Below, piece after piece: positions 1,746 through 20,484 of a DNA stretch of 24,000 nucleotides (positions are counted from its first letter, which is position 1; every line of letters starts with the position of its first letter). This DNA is from Leptolyngbyaceae cyanobacterium RM1_406_9 (GTDB lineage: Bacteria > Cyanobacteriota > Cyanobacteriia > Elainellales > Elainellaceae), in NCBI GenBank assembly GCA_012033355.1, contig JAAUQZ010000002.1, positions 25,604 through 49,603 of the forward strand, in the 5' to 3' direction. Position numbers and translations under genes: made by a program. Under the pieces are notes generated by a model, which saw only the letters and a program-made list of their open reading frames with translations, did not search any database and was not told the origin of the DNA.

Positions 1746-2261
1746 TGTGGCAAACAGATGAAGCTGAAAGGGAGCGCACCTTACTGCCCGTTCTGCCCGC
1801 TCAACTGCACGGCGGGGATAGCGAATCAACTGGGCACTGCTGGATTGAATGGGGGGCATTAGCAACTGTTGAGGCTGGTATAGGTGAGGCTAGCGAGAGG
1901 AAGTCCGGCAAAGCTAAAAATTTACATTCTTGTCTATCTTATGCTGTTTTTTGGGGGCGATCGCACCCCATCAGGCTTTACCAGCAGCTCATGGGCAAGT
2001 CCGAAGCAGTTAAGTAAAGACAAAAATCAAGGGTTTTGATCGGCTGAACATTTTTTGGTAGCGCTCATCACATTTTTTATTTAGCTCCATTGGTAACTCT
2101 TTTACTAAGCGCTTGCAAGATTCGTTAGCAGAGCAAAGAGGCGTTCTATCGGCGCTTGAGTTGTGTTGCTTCGGGTCTTGAGCAGAGGTAAGCCGATTTA
2201 GAAACCGAAATTTAACGGGTTCTTGAGTAGGGTTCCCTCTGTTAGAGCTAGTAGAAACAAT

Positions 2262-2390
2262 TAGGTCGCTTCTAGGGTTCCGGTTTGGGTGTCATCCAAA
2301 TGGCTGGTCCGAGAGAAGCCAGCTAGCTTTTGAAAGTTCTGTTTGAGAACTTTCGGCTAGCCACACGGCGGGATAAAAGCCCGGGAGAAG
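2262..2390 (+). promoter_or_regulatory. ykkC: guanidine-I (ykkC/yxkD class) riboswitch aptamer
   Basis: All three hallmark conserved blocks of the ykkC motif are present in order: CTAGGGTTCCGG (2272-2283), GGTCCGAGAG (2306-2315) and ACACGGCGGGATAAAAGCCCGGGAGA (2363-2388). An extended internal helix (GCTAGC..GAAAGTTCT gttt GAGAACTTTC..GCTAGC) lies between them. The aptamer ends about 115 nt upstream of the first CDS. Its boundaries are approximate. Confidence 0.85.
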
Positions 2391-2430
2391 CAGTCTAGTG
2401 GCTGAGACTGTCTCCTGGGCTTTGCTTTGC
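2379..2430 (+). terminator. riboswitch expression platform: intrinsic terminator sharing its 5' arm with the aptamer 3' end
   Basis: GCCCGGGAGAagCAGTCT (2379-2396) pairs with AGACTGTCTCCTGGGC (2405-2420). That gives 16 bp with one G-U pair and a 2-nt bulge, and an 8-nt loop. TTTGCTTTG follows. The 5' arm is the conserved GCCCGGGAGA of the aptamer, so aptamer folding and terminator folding are mutually exclusive, which is ON-switch logic. Confidence 0.7.
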
Positions 2431-2504
2431 AGTTCAACTGAAAGGCGGGTTTCCCAGGACAGTCATGGAATTGGCATAATTCAACGATTTCTGGGTGATT
2501 AACT

Positions 2505-3695
2505 ATGACGGATGATCCTCTCTTTCAAAGTCCATCTAACGGACAGCAGCCTCAAACGCAGGCTCAACACGCCCTAGAGCGGGAAGCCCAGTTGCCGATG
2601 ACGGGGTGGCAGCAGGAGGTTTCTAGAGGGCTGGAGTTTGGGCTAGAGGCGGCTGAAAGTATCCGCGATCGCTCCATTCCCACCTTTTCTCGCGGTGAAT
2701 TGCCTCACTATGCAGGCATCAATACTTTCCTCAAAGCGCCTTACCTGGAAGATGTGCGAAAGGTGGGAGAATATGACGTGGCGATCGTCGGTGTGCCGCA
2801 CGATTCTGGCACTACTTACCGCCCTGGAACTCGCTTTGGACCACAGGGAATTCGCCGCATTTCTGCACTTTACACGCCCTACAACTTCGAGCTAGGCATC
2901 GACCTGCGCGAACAGATCACGCTCTGCGATGTCGGCGACATTTTTACCATTCCCGCCAACAACGAGAAGTCATTTGACCAGATTTCTAAAGGCGTTGCTC
3001 ACGTTTTCAGTTCTGGTGCATTCCCAATCATCTTAGGCGGCGATCACTCGATTGGGTTTCCGACCGTGCGCGGGGTCTGTCGGCATCTGGGCGACAAAAA
3101 AGTAGGAATTATTCACTTCGATCGCCACGTAGACACCCAGGAAACCGACCTGGACGAGCGGATGCACACCTGCCCCTGGTTTCACGCCACCAACATGAAG
3201 AATGCGCCCGCCAAAAACCTGGTGCAGCTTGGGATTGGTGGATGGCAGGTGCCGCGTCAGGGGGTGAAAGTGTGCCGCGATCGCGCCACCAACATTCTCA
3301 CCGTCACCGACATTACCGAAATGGGACTGGATGCCGCCGTAGACTTTGCCCTGGAACGCGCCCTCGATGGCACCGATTGCGTCTACATTAGCTTTGACAT
3401 TGACTGCATCGACGCGGGCTTTGTCCCTGGCACGGGCTGGCCCGAACCTGGCGGACTACTGCCCCGTGAAGCCCTCTACCTGCTCGGCAAAATCGTCCAA
3501 AAAGCGCCCGTTTGCGGACTAGAAGTGGTTGAAGTCTCACCGCCCTACGACATCAGCGATATCACCTCCCTGATGGCTACGCGAGTCATCTGTGACACGA
3601 TGGCGCATCTGGTGCTGTCGGGACAACTGCCGCGATCGCAAAAACCCGCTTACATCCACCCAGAGGCTCAGCCGGAATTGGTGGAGTGGAGCTAG
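2505..3695 (+). CDS. gdmH: agmatinase/ureohydrolase-family enzyme, predicted Ni-dependent guanidine hydrolase (GdmH-like)
   Basis: The 396-aa ORF carries the arginase/agmatinase-fold metal-ligand motifs LGGDHSIGF, HFDRHVD (DxHxD), SFDIDCID and GLEVVEVSPPYD. The guanidine hydrolase call, rather than agmatinase, rests on context. A guanidine-I riboswitch sits directly upstream and hypA/hypB-like genes sit directly downstream, as in Synechocystis sll1077-sll1079. Confidence 0.85.
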   Translation: MTDDPLFQSPSNGQQPQTQAQHALEREAQLPMTGWQQEVSRGLEFGLEAAESIRDRSIPTFSRGELPHYAGINTFLKAPYLEDVRKVGEYDVAIVGVPHDSGTTYRPGTRFGPQGIRRISALYTPYNFELGIDLREQITLCDVGDIFTIPANNEKSFDQISKGVAHVFSSGAFPIILGGDHSIGFPTVRGVCRHLGDKKVGIIHFDRHVDTQETDLDERMHTCPWFHATNMKNAPAKNLVQLGIGGWQVPRQGVKVCRDRATNILTVTDITEMGLDAAVDFALERALDGTDCVYISFDIDCIDAGFVPGTGWPEPGGLLPREALYLLGKIVQKAPVCGLEVVEVSPPYDISDITSLMATRVICDTMAHLVLSGQLPRSQKPAYIHPEAQPELVEWS

Positions 3696-3739
3696 GGAAG
3701 GGATGAGGGATGAGGGATGAGGGGTGAGGGAGGAAGGCA
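3696..3739. repeat. tandem heptanucleotide repeat (GGATGAG)3-GGGTGAG with degenerate flanks
   Basis: Read directly: gggaag ggatgag ggatgag ggatgag gggtgag ggaggaagg, starting right after the gdmH stop codon (TAG 3693-3695). Related G-rich heptamers occur at 6221-6237, 6305-6315, 15184-15205 and 16262-16299. Confidence 0.85.
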
Positions 3740-3750
3740 TTTTTCCACCT

Positions 3751-3904
3751 CATTACCAAGCTAGAGCTTGGTAATGACGGACTGGAAGTCCAGCTTCCTG
3801 CGCTAACAAGGAACCGCTCAATGGCAACAGCCCGTGGGACTCATCCCCTTCATCAAAGGAAGCTGGAGCTTCCTTGACTGCATTGCTAAGCTGGAGCTTG
3901 GCAA
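3751..3904. repeat. composite palindromic (REP/MITE-like) element, copy 1
   Basis: There are four palindromic units in the order A-B-spacer-B'-A'. They are CATTACCAAGCTagAGCTTGGTAATG (3751-3776), GGAAGTCCAGCTTCC (3784-3798), GGAAGCTggAGCTTCC (3859-3874) and TTGCTAAGCTggAGCTTGGCAA (3883-3904). The same architecture recurs at 9513-9672. Confidence 0.8.
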
Positions 3905-3975
3905 CGAGGTTATTCCGCATCTACTTCATCCAACCTGCATCTGAAAAGGACGACCGCAAATTTTGGACTTTTGCT

Positions 3976-4356
3976 ATGCATGAAACCGATATGACAAAAG
4001 CACTAATTTTAACCGTGCAAAATTGGTGGGAAGCGCAGCCAGAACGCCCCAAAATTTCTCAGGTGCATCTCACTGTCGGTCAGTTTACCTGTGTGGAACC
4101 CGTTAGCTTGCAGTTTGCCTTTGAAGTGCAGACTCGCAATACCTTTTTAGAAGCTGCCAAACTGGTGATTCAAGAAACCCCTTTGGTCGCTTTTTGTCAC
4201 CACTGTCAGCAAGAATATCGCCCCGAAATCGGCGTTCAATATGCTTGCCCTGAGTGTCGATCACCCATGGAAGACATTCGCTCAGGGCGAGAGCTAAAAA
4301 TTAATCGCATCGAATACTGTTCTGACTCTGCGGAAAGTTATGCATCAAACCTTTGA
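3976..4356 (+). CDS. ghaA: HypA-like nickel metallochaperone (GhaA-like accessory protein)
   Basis: In the ORF-track frame 3874..4356 I place the start at ATG 3976, giving [10 protein letters not shown]. The MHE N-terminus is the HypA Ni-binding signature. The zinc-site pairs CHHC and CPEC are present (FCHHCQQEY...ACPECRSP). The upstream TTG-started extension lies inside the palindromic repeat element and is unlikely to be coding. Confidence 0.85.
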
Positions 4357-5053
4357 CGCGGCTCTAGAAATTAACCTGCTTCACGCCAACCAGGAAGGAG
4401 CCGACCACAATCGCGCCCACTTTGACGCATGGGGAATCACCTGTCTGAACATCATGAGCAGCCCCGGCGCAGGTAAAACCGTACTGCTAGAAAAAACCCT
4501 GGCAGCGCTCAACCAAACGCTAAAAATCGCCGTAATTGAAGGCGACATGACAACAGAATTAGATGCCGATCGCCTACGTCAACATAATGTTCCAGTAATC
4601 GCAATTAACACGGGTCGTTCCTGTCATCTGGATTCAAAAATGGTAGCAGGAGGGCTGTACCAGTTAGAGCATCAATACAACCCTTCTGACTTTGATTTGG
4701 TGCTGGTTGAGAATGTCGGAAACCTGGTTTGCCCCGCCGAATTTGAAGTGGGAGAACACGCCAAAGTTGCGCTTTTAAGCATCACCGAAGGCGAGGACAA
4801 ACCGCTGAAATATCCGGTGATGTTTCAGGAAGCAGATTGCCTACTGATCACCAAAATGGACTTAGCGCCGCATTTAGAAATTGACGTAAATCGAATCATT
4901 GCAAACGTCCGCCAGATGAATCCAAATGTGACGATTATTCCTGTTTCTGCCAAAATCGGAGAAGGCTTAACCGCCTGGTTTGATTGGCTACAGTCACAAA
5001 TCCCTGCTGCTGAAAAGATAGCTTCTAAATTGCCAGACCTAACATCAGCGTAG
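4340..5053 (+). CDS. ghaB: HypB-like Ni-binding GTPase (GhaB-like accessory protein)
   Basis: The 237-aa ORF has the SIMIBI/G3E GTPase motifs SSPGAGKT (P-loop), [17 protein letters not shown] (NKxD-like) and VSAK. The GTPase-domain metal ligands SCHLD plus the Cys of NLVCP are present. It overlaps the 3' end of the hypA-like gene by 17 nt, which suggests translational coupling. Confidence 0.85.
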
Positions 5054-5154
5054 GTTGGGTTGAGTTAACGAAACCCAACAACACCCAATCTCTAACCAAT
5101 TCAATCACGTGAGATCTACGTTTGTTGGGTTCCGCTTTGCTTCACCCAGCCTAC
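5049..5154. repeat. GTAGG..CCTAC-bounded palindromic element with an inner hairpin
   Basis: GTAGGTTGGGT (5050-5060) is the near-perfect inverted complement of ACCCAGCCTAC (5144-5154), matching 10 of 11. The inner hairpin is GTTGGGTT (5054-5061) / AACCCAAC (5072-5079). It belongs to the same family as 9698-9779 and 20434-20484. Confidence 0.7.
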
Positions 5155-5182
5155 AGTTCTAACCTGTTTCAAAGGAGCCTGA

Positions 5183-6220
5183 ATGAGAGTTCGCAAACTA
5201 TTATCTTGGGGAATTGCTTTTCTATTTGGTTTAGTTGTTGTAGTAAGCTGTGCGCCCAACCCAGGAACCGATACAGCAACTTCTGGAACCGATACGGCTG
5301 GGGAACCTGTCGTAATGGGCTTCAGCGCTTGGCCGGGTTGGTTTCCCTGGCAGGTCGCTGAGGAGGAAGGCTTGTTTGAGCAGAACAACGTCAACGTCGA
5401 ACTGACCTGGTTTGACGGCTATCTCGATTCAATTAACGCTCTGGCGGCTGGACAGCTTGACGCAAACGCCCAAACGCTCAACGACACGATTAGCTCGATC
5501 GCGGCTGGCTCTGATCAGGTGATTGTGTTGGTAAACGACAACTCGACGGGCAACGACATGATCATCGTCAGCGAGGAAATCAACTCCATTGAAGACCTGC
5601 GCGGCAAACGAGTTGCAGCGGAAGAGGGTACAGTCGATCACTTCTTGCTGCTATTGGGGTTGCGAGATGCTGGAATGACCCAGGCAGACATTGACTTTCA
5701 GCCGTTAGAGACGGGGGCTGCCGCTGCTGCTTTTGCGGCAGGTCAGCTAGATGCAGTTGGAGTATTTGCGCCATTCACCACACAGGCTCTAGCTCGTCCA
5801 GGCAGCAAGACGCTATTTAGCTCTGCGGACTACCCCGGTGCAATTCCCGATCATTTGGTTGTGACTCGTCAAATGGTCGATGAGCGTCCTGAAGAGGTGC
5901 AAGGTCTGGTCAATACCTGGTTTGCCACGCTGGAATTTATTGAAGGCAATCAGGACAAGGCGTTTGAAACAATGGCGAAACGGGCGGGTGTGACAGTTGA
6001 TGAGTACAAGGAATATGACCAGGGCACAACTATCTTCAGCATTGAGGACAATTTGGCAGCGTTTGAACCCGGTTCAGATATGTCTTCTTTGCCCTATGCC
6101 GCTGAACAAATTAGCCAGTTCCTAGTAGAAAGCGGACTGGTTCAAGAGGCTCCCGATGTTAGCAATATTTTTGACGACCAGTTTGTCCGAGCGTATGCAG
6201 AGCAGGCAGGAAAGGGATAA
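5183..6220 (+). CDS. ABC transporter substrate-binding lipoprotein, NitT/TauT (NMT1-like) family; candidate guanidine-binding protein
   Basis: The 345-aa ORF has an AGGAG Shine-Dalgarno about 6 nt upstream of the ATG. The N-terminus MRVRKLLSWGIAFLFGLVVVVSC looks like a lipoprotein signal peptide with a VVSC lipobox. The overall composition fits aliphatic-sulfonate/nitrate-type SBPs. It sits in the operon with the matching permease and ATPase. Confidence 0.85.
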   Translation: MRVRKLLSWGIAFLFGLVVVVSCAPNPGTDTATSGTDTAGEPVVMGFSAWPGWFPWQVAEEEGLFEQNNVNVELTWFDGYLDSINALAAGQLDANAQTLNDTISSIAAGSDQVIVLVNDNSTGNDMIIVSEEINSIEDLRGKRVAAEEGTVDHFLLLLGLRDAGMTQADIDFQPLETGAAAAAFAAGQLDAVGVFAPFTTQALARPGSKTLFSSADYPGAIPDHLVVTRQMVDERPEEVQGLVNTWFATLEFIEGNQDKAFETMAKRAGVTVDEYKEYDQGTTIFSIEDNLAAFEPGSDMSSLPYAAEQISQFLVESGLVQEAPDVSNIFDDQFVRAYAEQAGKG

Positions 6221-6241
6221 GGAAAGGATGAGGGATGTTAC

Positions 6242-6288
6242 TAGATCTCGTTAGATCTCGTTCCCAGGTAGAACCTGGGAAGAGATCT
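6242..6288. repeat. direct repeat plus strong stem-loop between the SBP and permease genes
   Basis: TAGATCTCGT is duplicated in tandem (6242-6251 and 6252-6261). AGATCTCGTTCCCAGGT (6253-6269) pairs with ACCTGGGAAGAGATCT (6273-6288), giving 16 bp with a 1-nt bulge and a 3-nt loop. G-rich GGATGAGGGA motifs flank it on both sides. Confidence 0.8.
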
Positions 6289-6375
6289 AAGAGGGGAAAC
6301 GAAAGGGATGAGGGAACCAGGTCCCATCTACTACCTACCACCTACCAAGCAAAAGGCAATCTTGAGGCAAAGCAA

Positions 6376-7233
6376 ATGAGCCAATCCAGCGAATTTATTG
6401 AGCAGGAAAACGTTTCTGCTGCACCTAGAATGTTGTCGCCTACTGTGTTTTGGCGCATTGCCGAAGATATTCCTAAAAACTTGTCCTGGACGCTGATTGT
6501 TTTGTCGATCGCCATTCCAATTTCCCTCTGGTGGATCATTTCTGAATACATTGCCGCAAACTATGAAGTCTATGCAATTTTTCTACCTACACCACTGCGG
6601 ACTCTAGAAGCGCTACAGCGTCTCTGGACAGAAGGACTATTGCCGACAGACATAGCATACAGTATGTTTCGGGTCTTCAGCGGTTTCCTATTAGCGGCGA
6701 TTATTTCGGTTCCTTTGGGTGTATTGATGGGGTCGTTTGCGAGTTGGCGATCGCTCCTAGAACCGATCATTGGCATCATTCGCTATATGCCAGCCCCCGC
6801 CTTTATTCCCCTCCTAATTCTCTACTTTGGGTTAGGCGAAGTTCCTAAAATTCTGCTGATTTTCATTGGCACCCTATTTTTCAACACGCTGATGATTATG
6901 GATGCGGTGAAGTTTGTGCCCAAAGAATTAATCGAAACCACCTATACACTGGGAGGGAGACGCTTACAGGTTTTACTTCAGGTGATTTTGCCCTACATCT
7001 ATCCCAGCATTATTGATGCCTATCGCGTCAACATGGCTTCAGCCTGGAACCTGGTTATCGTGGCGGAGCTGGTTGCCGCAACGGAAGGTTTGGGTAAGCG
7101 AATTAGCATCGCTCAGCGGTTTTTGAGAACCGATGAAATTTTTGCTGGACTGATTGTAATTGGATTGATTGGTTTAGGGATCGATTTGCTATTCCGGTTG
7201 TTGTTAAAGTTTTCCTGTCGATGGGCGGCTTAA
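6376..7233 (+). CDS. ABC transporter permease (NitT/TauT family)
   Basis: In the ORF-track frame 6235..7233 I place the start at ATG 6376 (MSQSSEFIEQ...), with GAGG 8 nt upstream. The earlier part of the frame is made of the intergenic repeats. The protein has six predicted hydrophobic spans and a binding-protein-dependent permease loop (TLGGRRLQVLLQVILPYIYPSIID). Confidence 0.85.
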   Translation: MSQSSEFIEQENVSAAPRMLSPTVFWRIAEDIPKNLSWTLIVLSIAIPISLWWIISEYIAANYEVYAIFLPTPLRTLEALQRLWTEGLLPTDIAYSMFRVFSGFLLAAIISVPLGVLMGSFASWRSLLEPIIGIIRYMPAPAFIPLLILYFGLGEVPKILLIFIGTLFFNTLMIMDAVKFVPKELIETTYTLGGRRLQVLLQVILPYIYPSIIDAYRVNMASAWNLVIVAELVAATEGLGKRISIAQRFLRTDEIFAGLIVIGLIGLGIDLLFRLLLKFSCRWAA

Positions 7234-7260
7234 TCAGGTTAAAAAGCTCAATTCCTTGAA

Positions 7261-7324
7261 GGGCGTAGCATTCGGGCAAAAAATCTCGGTTTACTTCAGG
7301 GGCTATCTGGCGAATGCTGCGCCC
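7261..7324. repeat. palindromic intergenic element (14-bp stem, 36-nt loop)
   Basis: GGGCGTAGCATTCG (7261-7274) pairs with CGAATGCTGCGCCC (7311-7324), with 13 Watson-Crick pairs and one G-U. It lies between the permease and ATPase genes. Confidence 0.75.
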
Positions 7325-7400
7325 CTACGCCTGCTTTAATTTGGCTTCTAATTTTTAATTGCTACGGTTTTTTCTACTCACACTTCTCTCACTCACAGCC

Positions 7401-8177
7401 ATGCACCTTGAAGTCTCTCAACTCCATAAACAGTTTCAGACTCGAAATGGTCCGATTGTTGCACTTAAGGATATTAATCTGCACATTGAGGAGGGTGAGT
7501 TTGTTTGTGCGGTGGGTGCGTCGGGGTCTGGTAAGTCCACCCTGTTGCGGCTGATTGCTGGACTGGAAACGCCAACGGCAGGTGAGGTGCGGGTAGACGG
7601 AGTGCGCGTCACGGGGCCAGGGGCAGACCGGGGTATGGTGTTTCAGCACTACACGCTGTATCCCTGGATGACGGTTGCCAAGAATGTTGGGTTTGGGCTG
7701 AAGTTGCAGGGCATGGCTGAGAAGGAACGCCGACAGCGGGTGTCTTACTATCTGGACGTGGTGGGGCTGGCGCAGTTTGCCAAAGCCTTACCCAAAGAGC
7801 TATCGGGCGGCATGAAGCAGCGGGTGGCGATCGCCCGTGCCCTTGCCTCTCAGCCCAAAATCTTGCTGATGGACGAACCCTTTGGAGCGCTGGATGTGCA
7901 AACCAAAGAAACGATGCAGCAATTTTTGCTGCAAGTGTGGGAACGGACGCGCACCAGCATTTTCATGATTACTCACGACGTGGAGGAAGCTGTTTTTTTG
8001 TCACAGCGAATTTATGTCTTGACTTCACGCCCTGGCACCATTTTGCGTGAGGTCGTGCTGGAATTGCCAAGCCAGCGAGACTACCACATCAAGCGTCAGC
8101 CCAAGTTTCAAGACTACAAGGAGGAAATCATGGGGTTGCTGCGCGGCGAGTCGGTCGAAGCAATGGCAGCAGGGTAG
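7401..8177 (+). CDS. ABC transporter ATP-binding protein (NitT/TauT family)
   Basis: In the ORF-track frame 7359..8177 the start is probably ATG 7401 (MHLEVSQLHKQF...). It has Walker A GASGSGKST, the signature LSGGMKQR, Walker B ILLMDEPFGALD and the H-loop ITHD. Confidence 0.9.
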   Translation: MHLEVSQLHKQFQTRNGPIVALKDINLHIEEGEFVCAVGASGSGKSTLLRLIAGLETPTAGEVRVDGVRVTGPGADRGMVFQHYTLYPWMTVAKNVGFGLKLQGMAEKERRQRVSYYLDVVGLAQFAKALPKELSGGMKQRVAIARALASQPKILLMDEPFGALDVQTKETMQQFLLQVWERTRTSIFMITHDVEEAVFLSQRIYVLTSRPGTILREVVLELPSQRDYHIKRQPKFQDYKEEIMGLLRGESVEAMAAG

Positions 8178-8188
8178 TTCAGTCGGTT

Positions 8189-8461
8189 TTAAGTGGCGCA
8201 AAACTGGTTTTCGTGCAGCAAAATTTCGCCGTGATCGGGAACCCAGGCTAACCAGCGATCGCCCGAATGTTGACACAGCAAAAGTGCCTCATCAAAGCTA
8301 AAGGGATTGGGAAGCTCTAACAGATGCACCCAGGTAGACGCTTGAAACTCAGGTCGAGGAACTTCTGGGTGCCGAACGGTCTGCCCATCGCAGGCGATTT
8401 TAGGTAGATCGCACCAGCGAGATTGGGTATCGTATTCTACTGGGCAAAAGTCTAGCTGCAT
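8189..8461 (-). CDS. hypothetical protein (90 aa, Cys-containing)
   Basis: It is an ATG-initiated ORF convergent with the ABC ATPase gene. It does not overlap repeats and its codon usage looks similar to its neighbours. I recognise no domain. A perfect palindrome AACCTTGGGttCCCAAGGTT (8489-8508) lies just upstream. Confidence 0.5.
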   Translation of the reverse strand: MQLDFCPVEYDTQSRWCDLPKIACDGQTVRHPEVPRPEFQASTWVHLLELPNPFSFDEALLLCQHSGDRWLAWVPDHGEILLHENQFCAT

Positions 8462-8595: not shown

Positions 8596-8795
8596 GCTAC
8601 CGTGTACACACATCTCCTGTATCAAGCTCAACATCCTGCATTGTGCCCCCCAACCCCCCAAGTTTGGGGGACTTCCGAGCCTCGAACCGTTTCCGTAGAG
8701 CGCTCTAAACGGCTCAAAGTCCCCCAGAATTGGGGGATTTAGGGGGCGAAAAGGACTCAAACGAAGTTAGACCCGATTTGTGTGTACACGGTAGT
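8596..8795. mobile_element. non-autonomous MITE-like element with perfect 16-bp terminal inverted repeats and a 9-bp target-site duplication
   Basis: The left TIR is CTACCGTGTACACACA (8597-8612) and the right TIR is TGTGTGTACACGGTAG (8779-8794), an exact reverse complement. TTGAAAAAG directly flanks both ends (8587-8595 and 8796-8804). The interior has no credible ORF, only G/C-run hairpins such as CCCCAAGTTTGGGG and CCCCCAGAATTGGGGG. Confidence 0.7.
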
Positions 8796-9050
8796 TTGAA
8801 AAAGAGGGGAACTCCGGAAGCCCCCTTAAAAGGGTTGGGGGATCTGGCTGCGTAAGTCTTACGTTTCTTGAGAGCTAAGGCGCGGCAAGATCGTTATAAA
8901 CAGAAAATATTCTGTATTAGTTACTACAAAAATATAGAAAATTGGCTGCTGATATCAAGCAGTTGTCGCACATCTTTACGCGGAGGGCGATCGCCGCACC
9001 AAAATTGCAGTTACAATCTGTAACGAACAATGCAATAGCAGGAAAAAACC

Positions 9051-9488
9051 ATGCCTTTATCAGTTGGCACAACGGCTCCCGCCTTTACCGTCAAAGACAC
9101 CAACGGCAATACGGTTTCACTCTCCGACTACGCTGGCAAAACCGTCGTTCTGTATTTCTATCCCAAAGACGACACACCGGGCTGCACCAAAGAGGCTTGC
9201 GGCTTTCGAGATTATTACGCCGATTACCAGGGCAAAGACATTACCGTATTTGGGGTGAGCATGGATGATGAAGCGTCTCACCAAAAGTTCACCGAAAAAT
9301 ATAGCCTTCCCTTCCCGCTCCTGGCTGATGTGGACGGCGCAATGACCAAAGCCTATGACGTAGATGGCGGCGGCTATTCTAAGCGCGTTACCTATGTTGT
9401 TGATGGCGAGGGCAAAATCGCTAAAGTTTACGGCACCGTCAAGACCGATACCCATGCCAGTGACATTTTGGCTGAGCTAGCTGTCTAG
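9051..9488 (+). CDS. bcp: peroxiredoxin, BCP/PrxQ type
   Basis: The 145-aa ORF reads MPLSVGTTAPAFTVKDTNGNTVSLSDYAGKTVVLYFYPKDDTPGCTKEACGFRD. This is the canonical PrxQ/BCP active site, with the peroxidatic Cys in PGCT and the resolving Cys five residues later. Confidence 0.93.
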   Translation: MPLSVGTTAPAFTVKDTNGNTVSLSDYAGKTVVLYFYPKDDTPGCTKEACGFRDYYADYQGKDITVFGVSMDDEASHQKFTEKYSLPFPLLADVDGAMTKAYDVDGGGYSKRVTYVVDGEGKIAKVYGTVKTDTHASDILAELAV

Positions 9489-9512
9489 CGTTGATATCGC
9501 TAGTCCCTGCTT

Positions 9513-9672
9513 AAACTTGTTGCCAAGCTGGGGCTTGGCAACAAGTTTGGTTTGGGAAGCTCCAGCTTCCTCTGGGTGACGGCAACAGGCAAGTCCTAGT
9601 CAATCTGGAGGTTCTTGCTGTCAATGGAAGCAGGAGCTTCCAAAATGCCGTTCCCAAGCTCCAGCTTGGAAA
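9513..9672. repeat. composite palindromic (REP/MITE-like) element, copy 2
   Basis: It has the same A-B-spacer-B'-A' layout as 3751-3904. The units are AAACTTGTTGCCAAGCtgggGCTTGGCAACAAGTTT (9513-9548, perfect 16-bp stem), GGAAGCTccAGCTTCC (9555-9570), GGAAGCaggAGCTTCC (9627-9641) and TTCCCAAGCTccAGCTTGGAAA (9651-9672). The first hairpin starts 25 nt after the prxQ stop. Confidence 0.8.
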
Positions 9673-9697
9673 CGAGCAACAAGCAAGTCCCAGAAGC

Positions 9698-9779
9698 GTA
9701 GGATGGGCAAAGCAGAGTGTGCCCATCAAAGTGCAATTCTTTATCGATGGGCACGGGCAACGCCCTTTGCCCATCCTAC
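9698..9779. repeat. nested palindromic element bounded by GTAGG..CCTAC
   Basis: The outer arms are GTAGGATGGGCAAAG (9698-9712) and CTTTGCCCATCCTAC (9765-9779), a perfect 15 bp. The inner arms are GTGCCCATC (9719-9727) and GATGGGCAC (9746-9754). Confidence 0.8.
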
Positions 9780-20433: not shown

Positions 20434-20484
20434 GGTGGGCAGTGCCCACCCTACACGCTCTCAGTAGGGTGGGCACTGCCCACC
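20434..20484. repeat. double palindrome GGTGGGCAGTGCCCACCCTAC / GTAGGGTGGGCACTGCCCACC
   Basis: The two 21-mers (20434-20454 and 20464-20484) are exact reverse complements, and each is internally palindromic. They sit in the ctaD-ctaE spacer. Confidence 0.85.

Follow-up and report, generated by a model that had tools for sequence, protein, structure and literature searches.

Among the studies that characterized the gdmH/ghaA/ghaB system of Synechocystis is, reportedly, that of Funck et al. (Nature, 2022). A passage of Wang et al. (2021), citing Nelson et al. (2017), describes operons under guanidine riboswitches in which an agmatinase-like gene stands together with hypA, hypB, SsuA_fam, TM_PBP2 and ABC_NrtD_SsuB (PMC8390497), and the Synechocystis locus allows cells to grow when guanidine is their only source of nitrogen (Itzenhauser et al. 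2025, PMC12704784). Published work deals with the enzyme and its maturases, with the importer and the riboswitch, and with control by NtcA (PMC8390497, PMC12704784, PMC11410670). This architecture is already known, having been under discussion since 2017 and the subject of experiments in 2021, 2022 and 2025, and many cyanobacteria carry it. Here we describe a locus that appears to be of this kind in a 24,000-nucleotide (nt) stretch of DNA from Leptolyngbyaceae cyanobacterium RM1_406_9 (contig JAAUQZ010000002.1; hereafter, the window, with position 1 as its first letter).

Positions 2262-8177 of the window hold six co-directional genes, all on the plus strand, behind an aptamer. With high confidence, we read this block as a cyanobacterial guanidine-assimilation locus, gdmH-ghaA-ghaB-gimA-gimB-gimC, orthologous to sll1077-sll1082 of Synechocystis. 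Two bodies of evidence carry this reading: the present analysis yields the sequence identities, the aptamer, the layout of the terminator and the conserved synteny, while enzyme activity, the need for nickel, the binding of guanidine to GimA and the part played by NtcA come from experiments on the Synechocystis orthologue. The features of the block, with functions as predicted, are as follows.

2058-2099, plus strand: predicted NtcA-type promoter, from comparison with related loci
2261-2389, plus strand: guanidine-I (ykkC) riboswitch aptamer, Rfam RF00442, 84.1 bits, all conserved blocks present
2379-2429, plus strand: expression platform consisting of a terminator hairpin and its tail, from folding and the layout in relatives
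2505-3695, plus strand: gdmH, guanidine hydrolase (guanidinase) of arginase fold, 396 amino acids; Pfam Arginase (E 4e-78) and PDB match
3699-3915, plus strand: repeats in the gdmH-ghaA spacer, outside the functional parts of the published system
3976-4356, plus strand: ghaA, HypA-type nickel metallochaperone, 126 amino acids; Pfam HypA (E 2e-31), TIGR00100 (125.5 bits)
4340-5053, plus strand: ghaB, HypB-type metal-binding GTPase, 237 amino acids; TIGR00073 (306.8 bits), PDB HypB 2HF8 (E 9e-45)
5183-6220, plus strand: gimA, periplasmic guanidine-binding protein (NitT/TauT, SsuA-like); NMT1_2 / SsuA_fam
6235-7233, plus strand: gimB, ABC permease, its start probably M48 at 6376; BPD_transp_1
7401-8177 (open reading frame 7359-8177), plus strand: gimC, ABC ATPase, 258 amino acids, from homology

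An earlier note on this DNA, made from the letters alone, had named most of these parts, and they are there: a guanidine-I aptamer, an arginase-fold ureohydrolase with its metal-ligand motifs, a HypA paralogue with an MHE start and two CxxC motifs, an overlapping HypB-type GTPase, and a NitT/TauT-type binding protein, permease and ATPase. Its broader proposal, that a guanidine riboswitch, an Sll1077-type hydrolase, Hyp-like maturases and an importer together serve nitrogen scavenging, likewise held up against the 87% identity to Sll1077, the sub-cut-off agmatinase scores and the published Synechocystis experiments.

Comparative counts are drawn from a single scan of species-representative genomes, which returned at least 584 relatives, and refer to the best 80 of these loci. 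These carry cyanobacterial or unclassified titles, show 87-98% identity in protein sequence, do not include Synechocystis, and were searched with the six window proteins and the aptamer profile. The closest relatives in these comparisons are L003, the Leptolyngbyaceae metagenome-assembled genome SM1_4_3, with which the window is syntenic and 88-94% identical in DNA, and L001. The HIP1 motif of cyanobacteria, GCGATCGC, is abundant in the window. For 78 of the 80 loci, the available upstream sequence sufficed to look for a same-strand aptamer in the 600 nt before gdmH, and one is present in 68; all six genes stand in identical order in 48 of the 80. Because of these two counts, both the association between aptamer and gdmH and the conserved six-gene order are far beyond chance.

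The hydrolase and its maturases

Compared against all PDB sequences, the 396-amino-acid protein matches best to 7ESR/7OI1, the structures of Synechocystis Sll1077 (GdmH), at E 7e-237, with 327 of 377 aligned residues identical (87%) and no gaps. Next comes 9FEK (E 1e-177), the guanidinase of Nitrospira inopinata (PMC11410670), and solved agmatinases follow at E 1e-34 to 1e-37; setting Sll1077 against agmatinases, a comparison suggested at the outset, thus came out in favour of Sll1077. Of the motifs that bind the metals, GGDHS, FDRHVD and SFDIDCID are all intact and the same as in Sll1077. The sequence GTGWPEPGG, the gating Trp and the cyanobacterial C-terminal extension, whose roles in the structure have been described (PMC11410670), also match Sll1077, the alignment reaching residue 390.

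The best NCBIfam matches of this protein are agmatinase models, and GhaA and GhaB score above the hypA and hypB equivalog cut-offs; automatic annotation would name the genes agmatinase, hypA and hypB, in line with the earlier note. Taken at face value, these matches would favour an ordinary agmatinase (SpeB) of polyamine synthesis, with the Hyp-like genes serving a hydrogenase encoded elsewhere. The agmatinase scores, however, fall under both curated cut-offs, those of the models TIGR01230 and NF002564 (172 bits against 174.3, and 209 against 302), and the GdmH structures are matched at an E-value of 7e-237 as opposed to about 1e-35 for solved agmatinases. In 68 of 78 relatives the gene also lies behind an aptamer specific to guanidine, the Hyp-like pair lies 3′ of it in 71 of 80 loci, and Sll1077 itself prefers guanidine over agmatine (PMC8390497). 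We regard the SpeB explanation as extremely improbable. Given the identity to Sll1077 and the sub-cut-off agmatinase scores, we read the protein as an orthologue of the guanidine hydrolase GdmH and not as SpeB; by orthology, it would depend on Ni2+ and hydrolyse free guanidine, yielding urea and ammonium.

The two genes that follow gdmH have the hallmarks of nickel maturases. Translation of ghaA starts at ATG 3976 (MHE...) and not at TTG 3874 as in the list of open reading frames, giving a protein with an MHE N-terminus and the zinc-site motifs CHHC and CPEC. Its 3′ end overlaps ghaB by exactly 17 nt (4340-4356). In 79 of the 80 loci ghaA lies directly 3′ of gdmH, and in 71 the full order gdmH-ghaA-ghaB is kept. 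No hydrogenase or urease genes occur elsewhere in the 24 kb window, as had been stated for the surroundings of the block. In Synechocystis, it is GdmH, not hydrogenase, that needs GhaA and GhaB to receive its nickel (PMC12704784), and a corresponding role for the window pair, loading nickel into the window's GdmH, is supported by analogy with that system.

A guanidine-I riboswitch with an overlapping terminator

The aptamer match, at 84.1 bits, lies well above the RF00442 gathering score of 63 (E 5.7e-14) and covers model positions 1-107 of 107; a Rfam scan of the 24 kb window returned no match except RF00442. Downstream, a terminator hairpin at 2379-2420 is followed by the U-rich tail TTTGCTTTG at 2421-2429, and the stretch 2370-2450 folds at -38.7 kcal/mol (z -4.7). 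The 5′ arm of the hairpin consists of the last 11 nt of the aptamer (2379-2389, GCCCGGGAGAA), so that the hairpin competes with the aptamer. This layout, a hairpin overlapping the aptamer 3′ end and then a U-rich tail, recurs in 36 of the 38 relatives scored, namely those having the conserved aptamer 3′ end.

An aptamer-overlapping terminator is the standard transcriptional ON-switch layout of the guanidine-I class: with the shared 3′ segment held by the ligand, no terminator can form, and transcription in this class is permitted solely with guanidine (PMC11410670). For the Synechocystis copy of the riboswitch, a guanidine Kd of about 58 µM, in-line probing and a guanidine-induced GFP reporter have been published (PMC12704784). 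These results, carried over to the window, support a riboswitch that would bind guanidine and switch expression.

A generic scan for sigma-70 promoters and terminators gave fewer matches than shuffled controls, and it overlooked the riboswitch terminator because the loop is long. In one relative, L040, the minus strand carries a further aptamer, divergently oriented.

A predicted NtcA-type promoter and a long leader

Upstream of the aptamer, an NtcA-like box, GTAGCGCTCATCAC, at 2058-2071 is separated by a 22-nt spacer from the -10-like hexamer TAACTC at 2094-2099, which places the predicted transcription start at about 2106, some 155 nt before the aptamer. Among the related loci, the pattern GTA-N8-TAC was searched within 320 nt upstream of the aptamer, and a perfect copy is present in 55, where chance would give about 0.08 per locus. 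Most related loci with a perfect box also have a -10-like element about 22 nt further on. In alignment, the box of the window corresponds to the perfect one in L044, as well as to an invariant block, TGGTAACTCT, downstream, and its -10 element is likewise conserved. From this comparison we infer that the window has an NtcA-type promoter from which transcription would begin near 2106. Such a promoter fits both the nitrogen-scavenging reading and the published control of gdmH in Synechocystis, where NtcA regulates the gene (PMC12704784).

No exact NtcA box lies at 1800-8400. A second candidate box, at 2188-2201, was set aside, being unconserved in L001 and wrongly spaced relative to a -10 element.

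The predicted leader between promoter and aptamer (2106-2260, about 155 nt) is unusually long. Several relatives have similar leaders, with the box about 200 nt before the aptamer, including L008, L010, L017, L052 and L063. Rfam searches of the 155-nt leader, the gdmH-ghaA spacer and the ghaB-gimA gap gave chance-level matches only.

The GimABC importer

GimA begins with a lipoprotein-type signal sequence ending in ...VVVSC. For the two genes behind it, homology places the starts downstream of those of the open reading frames. The first 47 or so codons of the gimB reading frame (6235-6375) are unconserved, even in the closest relative; homology to relatives starts at residues 8-66, most often at 44-48 or 64, and over 6235-6328 the nucleotide sequence no longer matches L003. 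The lack of conservation suggests that the annotated start is too early, and the true start of gimB is probably M48 at 6376. In gimC, homology starts at the Met of ATG 7401 in 48 of 49 relatives, making this the probable start.

As to substrate, GimA exceeds the cut-off of the NCBIfam subfamily SsuA_fam (229.9 bits against 163.5), and among solved structures the nearest are of proteins that bind sulfonate, nitrate or taurine. These are the grounds for supposing that the transporter imports something else (an aliphatic sulfonate, taurine, nitrate or urea) and is a mere neighbour of the guanidine genes. The structural matches are distant, however, at E 1e-16 or worse, and evidence for guanidine comes from the characterized orthologue. 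Sll1080 (GimA of Synechocystis) binds guanidine with a Kd of 97 nM through a pocket formed by W59, W62, D135, F205 and D233, and Synechocystis gimA and gimB mutants are unable to use 0.1 mM guanidine (PMC12704784). Residues W50, W53, D125, F195 and D223 of the window GimA fit the spacing of this Trp/Trp/Asp/Phe/Asp pocket, with a one-residue offset allowed. Across 176 aligned homologues, neither the two W nor the two D residues vary, and an aromatic residue always occupies position 195. Sll1080 is not among the 120 closer cyanobacterial GimA homologues listed.

Gene linkage points the same way. The importer is collinear behind ghaB in 48 of the 80 loci and absent in nine despite more than 3.5 kb of sequence 3′ of ghaB. 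In L038 and L070, gimABC is not 3′ of ghaB and has its own guanidine-I aptamer, which lies about 4.2 kb upstream of gdmH in L038, and on the minus strand between gimA and gdmH in L070. A separate gimABC with an aptamer of its own ties the importer independently to guanidine. With its linkage conserved either to gdmH or to a guanidine aptamer, we consider import of another substrate very improbable and favour guanidine.

One transcript or two units

The earlier note had presented an importer fused into the riboswitch-controlled unit as a special feature of this DNA. It is not special, since sll1080-sll1082 of Synechocystis are gimABC and 48 of the 80 relatives share this layout. Whether the riboswitch unit includes the importer is a separate matter, for which the 129-nt gap between ghaB and gimA speaks in part: a generic scan finds no terminator-like site there, and the gap contains no GTA-N8-TAC with one mismatch or fewer, the nearest one-mismatch site lying inside ghaB at 4978. 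Given the lack of both a terminator and an NtcA box in the gap, riboswitch read-through into the importer genes is plausible and possibly dominant. Membership in the unit is not established, however, as gimABC of Synechocystis has its own NtcA-dependent promoter, demonstrated with a GFP reporter, and a separate transcription start and transcript, TU794 (PMC12704784). Such a promoter belongs to the regulation of a single species and is no defining trait of the transporter family.

On the Synechocystis pattern, the locus would form two independent units, the riboswitch gating only gdmH-ghaA-ghaB and gimABC being transcribed mainly from a promoter in or near the ghaB-gimA gap. The published NtcA-dependent promoter and separate start upstream of Synechocystis gimA argue for this arrangement, as does the presence of a 129-nt gap before gimA in the window. 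Against it stand the lack of a box with at most one mismatch in that gap, the rarity of a perfect NtcA box near gimA among relatives (3 of 52), and the lack of a terminator-like site 3′ of ghaB. All six proteins are moreover elevated in guanidine-producing Synechocystis (PMC8390497), and where gimABC stands apart from gdmH it gains its own aptamer, suggesting that it usually relies on the upstream one. We think two independent units rather unlikely, and infer that all six genes may be carried on one transcript in this organism. An internal gimA promoter of a non-NtcA kind is possible within the gap.

The spacer between gdmH and ghaA holds the one local peculiarity of the locus, a MITE-like insertion. 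The spacer measures 280 nt, and its RNA folds at -113 kcal/mol (z -5). Just 3′ of the gdmH stop codon lies a tandem repeat, (AGGGATG)x4.7, at 3699-3731, followed at about 3745-3915 by a nested-palindrome element resembling a miniature inverted-repeat transposable element (MITE), with the modules CCAAGCTnGAGCTTGG and GGAAGCTGGAGCTTCC. The spacer copy sits within the operon and would be transcribed with it; a second one, diverged and inverted, is found at about 9505-9690. Neither is present at the matching positions in L003 and L001, indicating lineage-specific insertions. Unlike the two units of Synechocystis, this lineage might have a single six-gene transcript under NtcA and riboswitch control, with no internal gimA promoter, in which the MITE-like hairpin perhaps acts as a processing or attenuation site; the hairpin would then set the ratio of GdmH to the maturases and importer. 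We consider this full scenario quite unlikely.

A model for guanidine use

Put together, the parts suggest the following sequence of events. Nitrogen limitation would activate transcription from the NtcA-type promoter near 2058-2099. If guanidine is lacking, the leader would form the terminator hairpin at 2379-2420 and transcription would stop; with guanidine bound, the aptamer at 2261-2389 would hold the shared 3′ segment, no terminator would form, and RNA polymerase would reach the genes. GimABC would take up guanidine at low external concentrations, GhaA and GhaB would load nickel into GdmH, and GdmH would convert guanidine to urea and ammonium for nitrogen assimilation, with urease presumed to be encoded elsewhere.

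We found no sequence evidence contradicting guanidine assimilation as the function of this locus. Some points weigh against the model or parts of it. The NtcA box of the window has one mismatch to GTA-N8-TAC (CAC for TAC). The correspondence of the GimA pocket to that of Sll1080 is by spacing and invariance, not by direct alignment. In view of the Synechocystis gimABC promoter, the description of the locus as one riboswitch-controlled unit may be only partly true. Finally, and speculatively, the hairpin in the 280-nt gdmH-ghaA spacer could attenuate read-through.

Other features of the window

Outside the block, the window's genes are those for a peroxiredoxin, an ArsR regulator, a metallophosphoesterase, a two-component pair, an ABC ATPase, CtaB, CtaA, CtaCDE and a subtilase. 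Exact NtcA-type boxes (GTA-N8-TAC) occur 3′ of the cluster at 8427-8440 and 8914-8927, the latter about 125 nt upstream of the peroxiredoxin open reading frame at 9051-9488; over the whole window, four exact boxes are observed and 1.6 are expected by chance.

Several repeats and reading frames also fall in or near the block. Stretches of GGGATGAGGGA, akin to the heptamer repeat 3′ of gdmH, occur at the gimA/gimB junction (6199-6235 and 6290-6315), and such purine-rich heptamer repeats resemble the short tandem repeats of filamentous cyanobacteria. An 87-amino-acid open reading frame on the minus strand (9511-9774) sits on the second MITE-like copy and is probably spurious. Opposite-strand open reading frames within the block (5116-5394, 7389-7649 and 8025-8276) are short and face plus-strand genes that match their families strongly. 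At 8646-8745, in the intergenic region 3′ of the cluster, there is an imperfect inverted repeat of 29 nt with many runs of C and G (CCCCCCAACCCCCCAAGTTTGGGGGACTT and its partner); this is one of the regions for which L003 and L001 have no counterpart. Further along, a perfect 21-nt inverted repeat, GGTGGGCAGTGCCCACCCTAC / GTAGGGTGGGCACTGCCCACC, occupies 20434-20484 between COX1 and COX3 of the cytochrome oxidase cluster.

Comparison with known systems

The value of these findings lies mainly in annotation and little in discovery. The correct gene names are gdmH, ghaA, ghaB and gimABC, where family models would give agmatinase, hypA, hypB and sulfonate ABC transporter. With the correct names in place, it becomes probable, by analogy with Synechocystis, that this filamentous cyanobacterium can use guanidine as a nitrogen source. 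The comparative data also extend the published picture modestly, adding counts for the aptamer, the terminator design and the NtcA box, and revealing how rarely an NtcA box precedes gimA.

The closest described system is sll1077-sll1082 of Synechocystis sp. PCC 6803, where the same six genes share their order and orientation with those of the window. It likewise carries a guanidine-I aptamer with a terminator-type platform in the gdmH leader and an NtcA-type promoter upstream. The proteins agree in turn: GdmH is 87% identical and shares the metal motifs, the gating Trp and the C-terminal extension, and the putative GimA pocket residues fit by spacing. Unlike Synechocystis, the window comes from a filamentous, Leptolyngbyaceae-like cyanobacterium. 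It lacks a recognisable NtcA box before gimA, its gdmH-ghaA spacer reaches 280 nt through the lineage-specific MITE-like insertion, and the leader predicted to precede its aptamer is long, at about 155 nt.

The guanidinase locus of the comammox bacterium Nitrospira inopinata also combines a guanidine-I riboswitch, an arginase-fold guanidinase (matched by the window enzyme at E 1e-177; 9FEK) and a guanidine importer (PMC11410670). Comammox loci differ from the window in having an APC-family permease instead of an ABC importer and no HypA/HypB-like chaperones (PMC11410670), and the Nitrospira inopinata enzyme lacks the C-terminal extension that the window GdmH has. Guanidine carboxylase operons, such as those of Pseudomonas syringae and Nitrosomonas, share the guanidine-I riboswitch and often a homologous NitT/TauT-type ABC importer (PMC12704784, PMC11410670). 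In contrast to the window, they encode an ATP-dependent guanidine carboxylase, a carboxyguanidine deiminase and an allophanate hydrolase, and no nickel hydrolase.

The maturases, finally, belong to the same families as HypA/HypB of [NiFe] hydrogenase and HypA/HypB/UreG of urease. Like HypA and HypB, the window pair has the MHE nickel site, two CxxC zinc motifs, a GTPase P-loop and a CH motif. Unlike in hydrogenase or urease maturation, however, the client here would be a ureohydrolase, with whose gene, gdmH, the pair is syntenic in 71 of the 80 loci.

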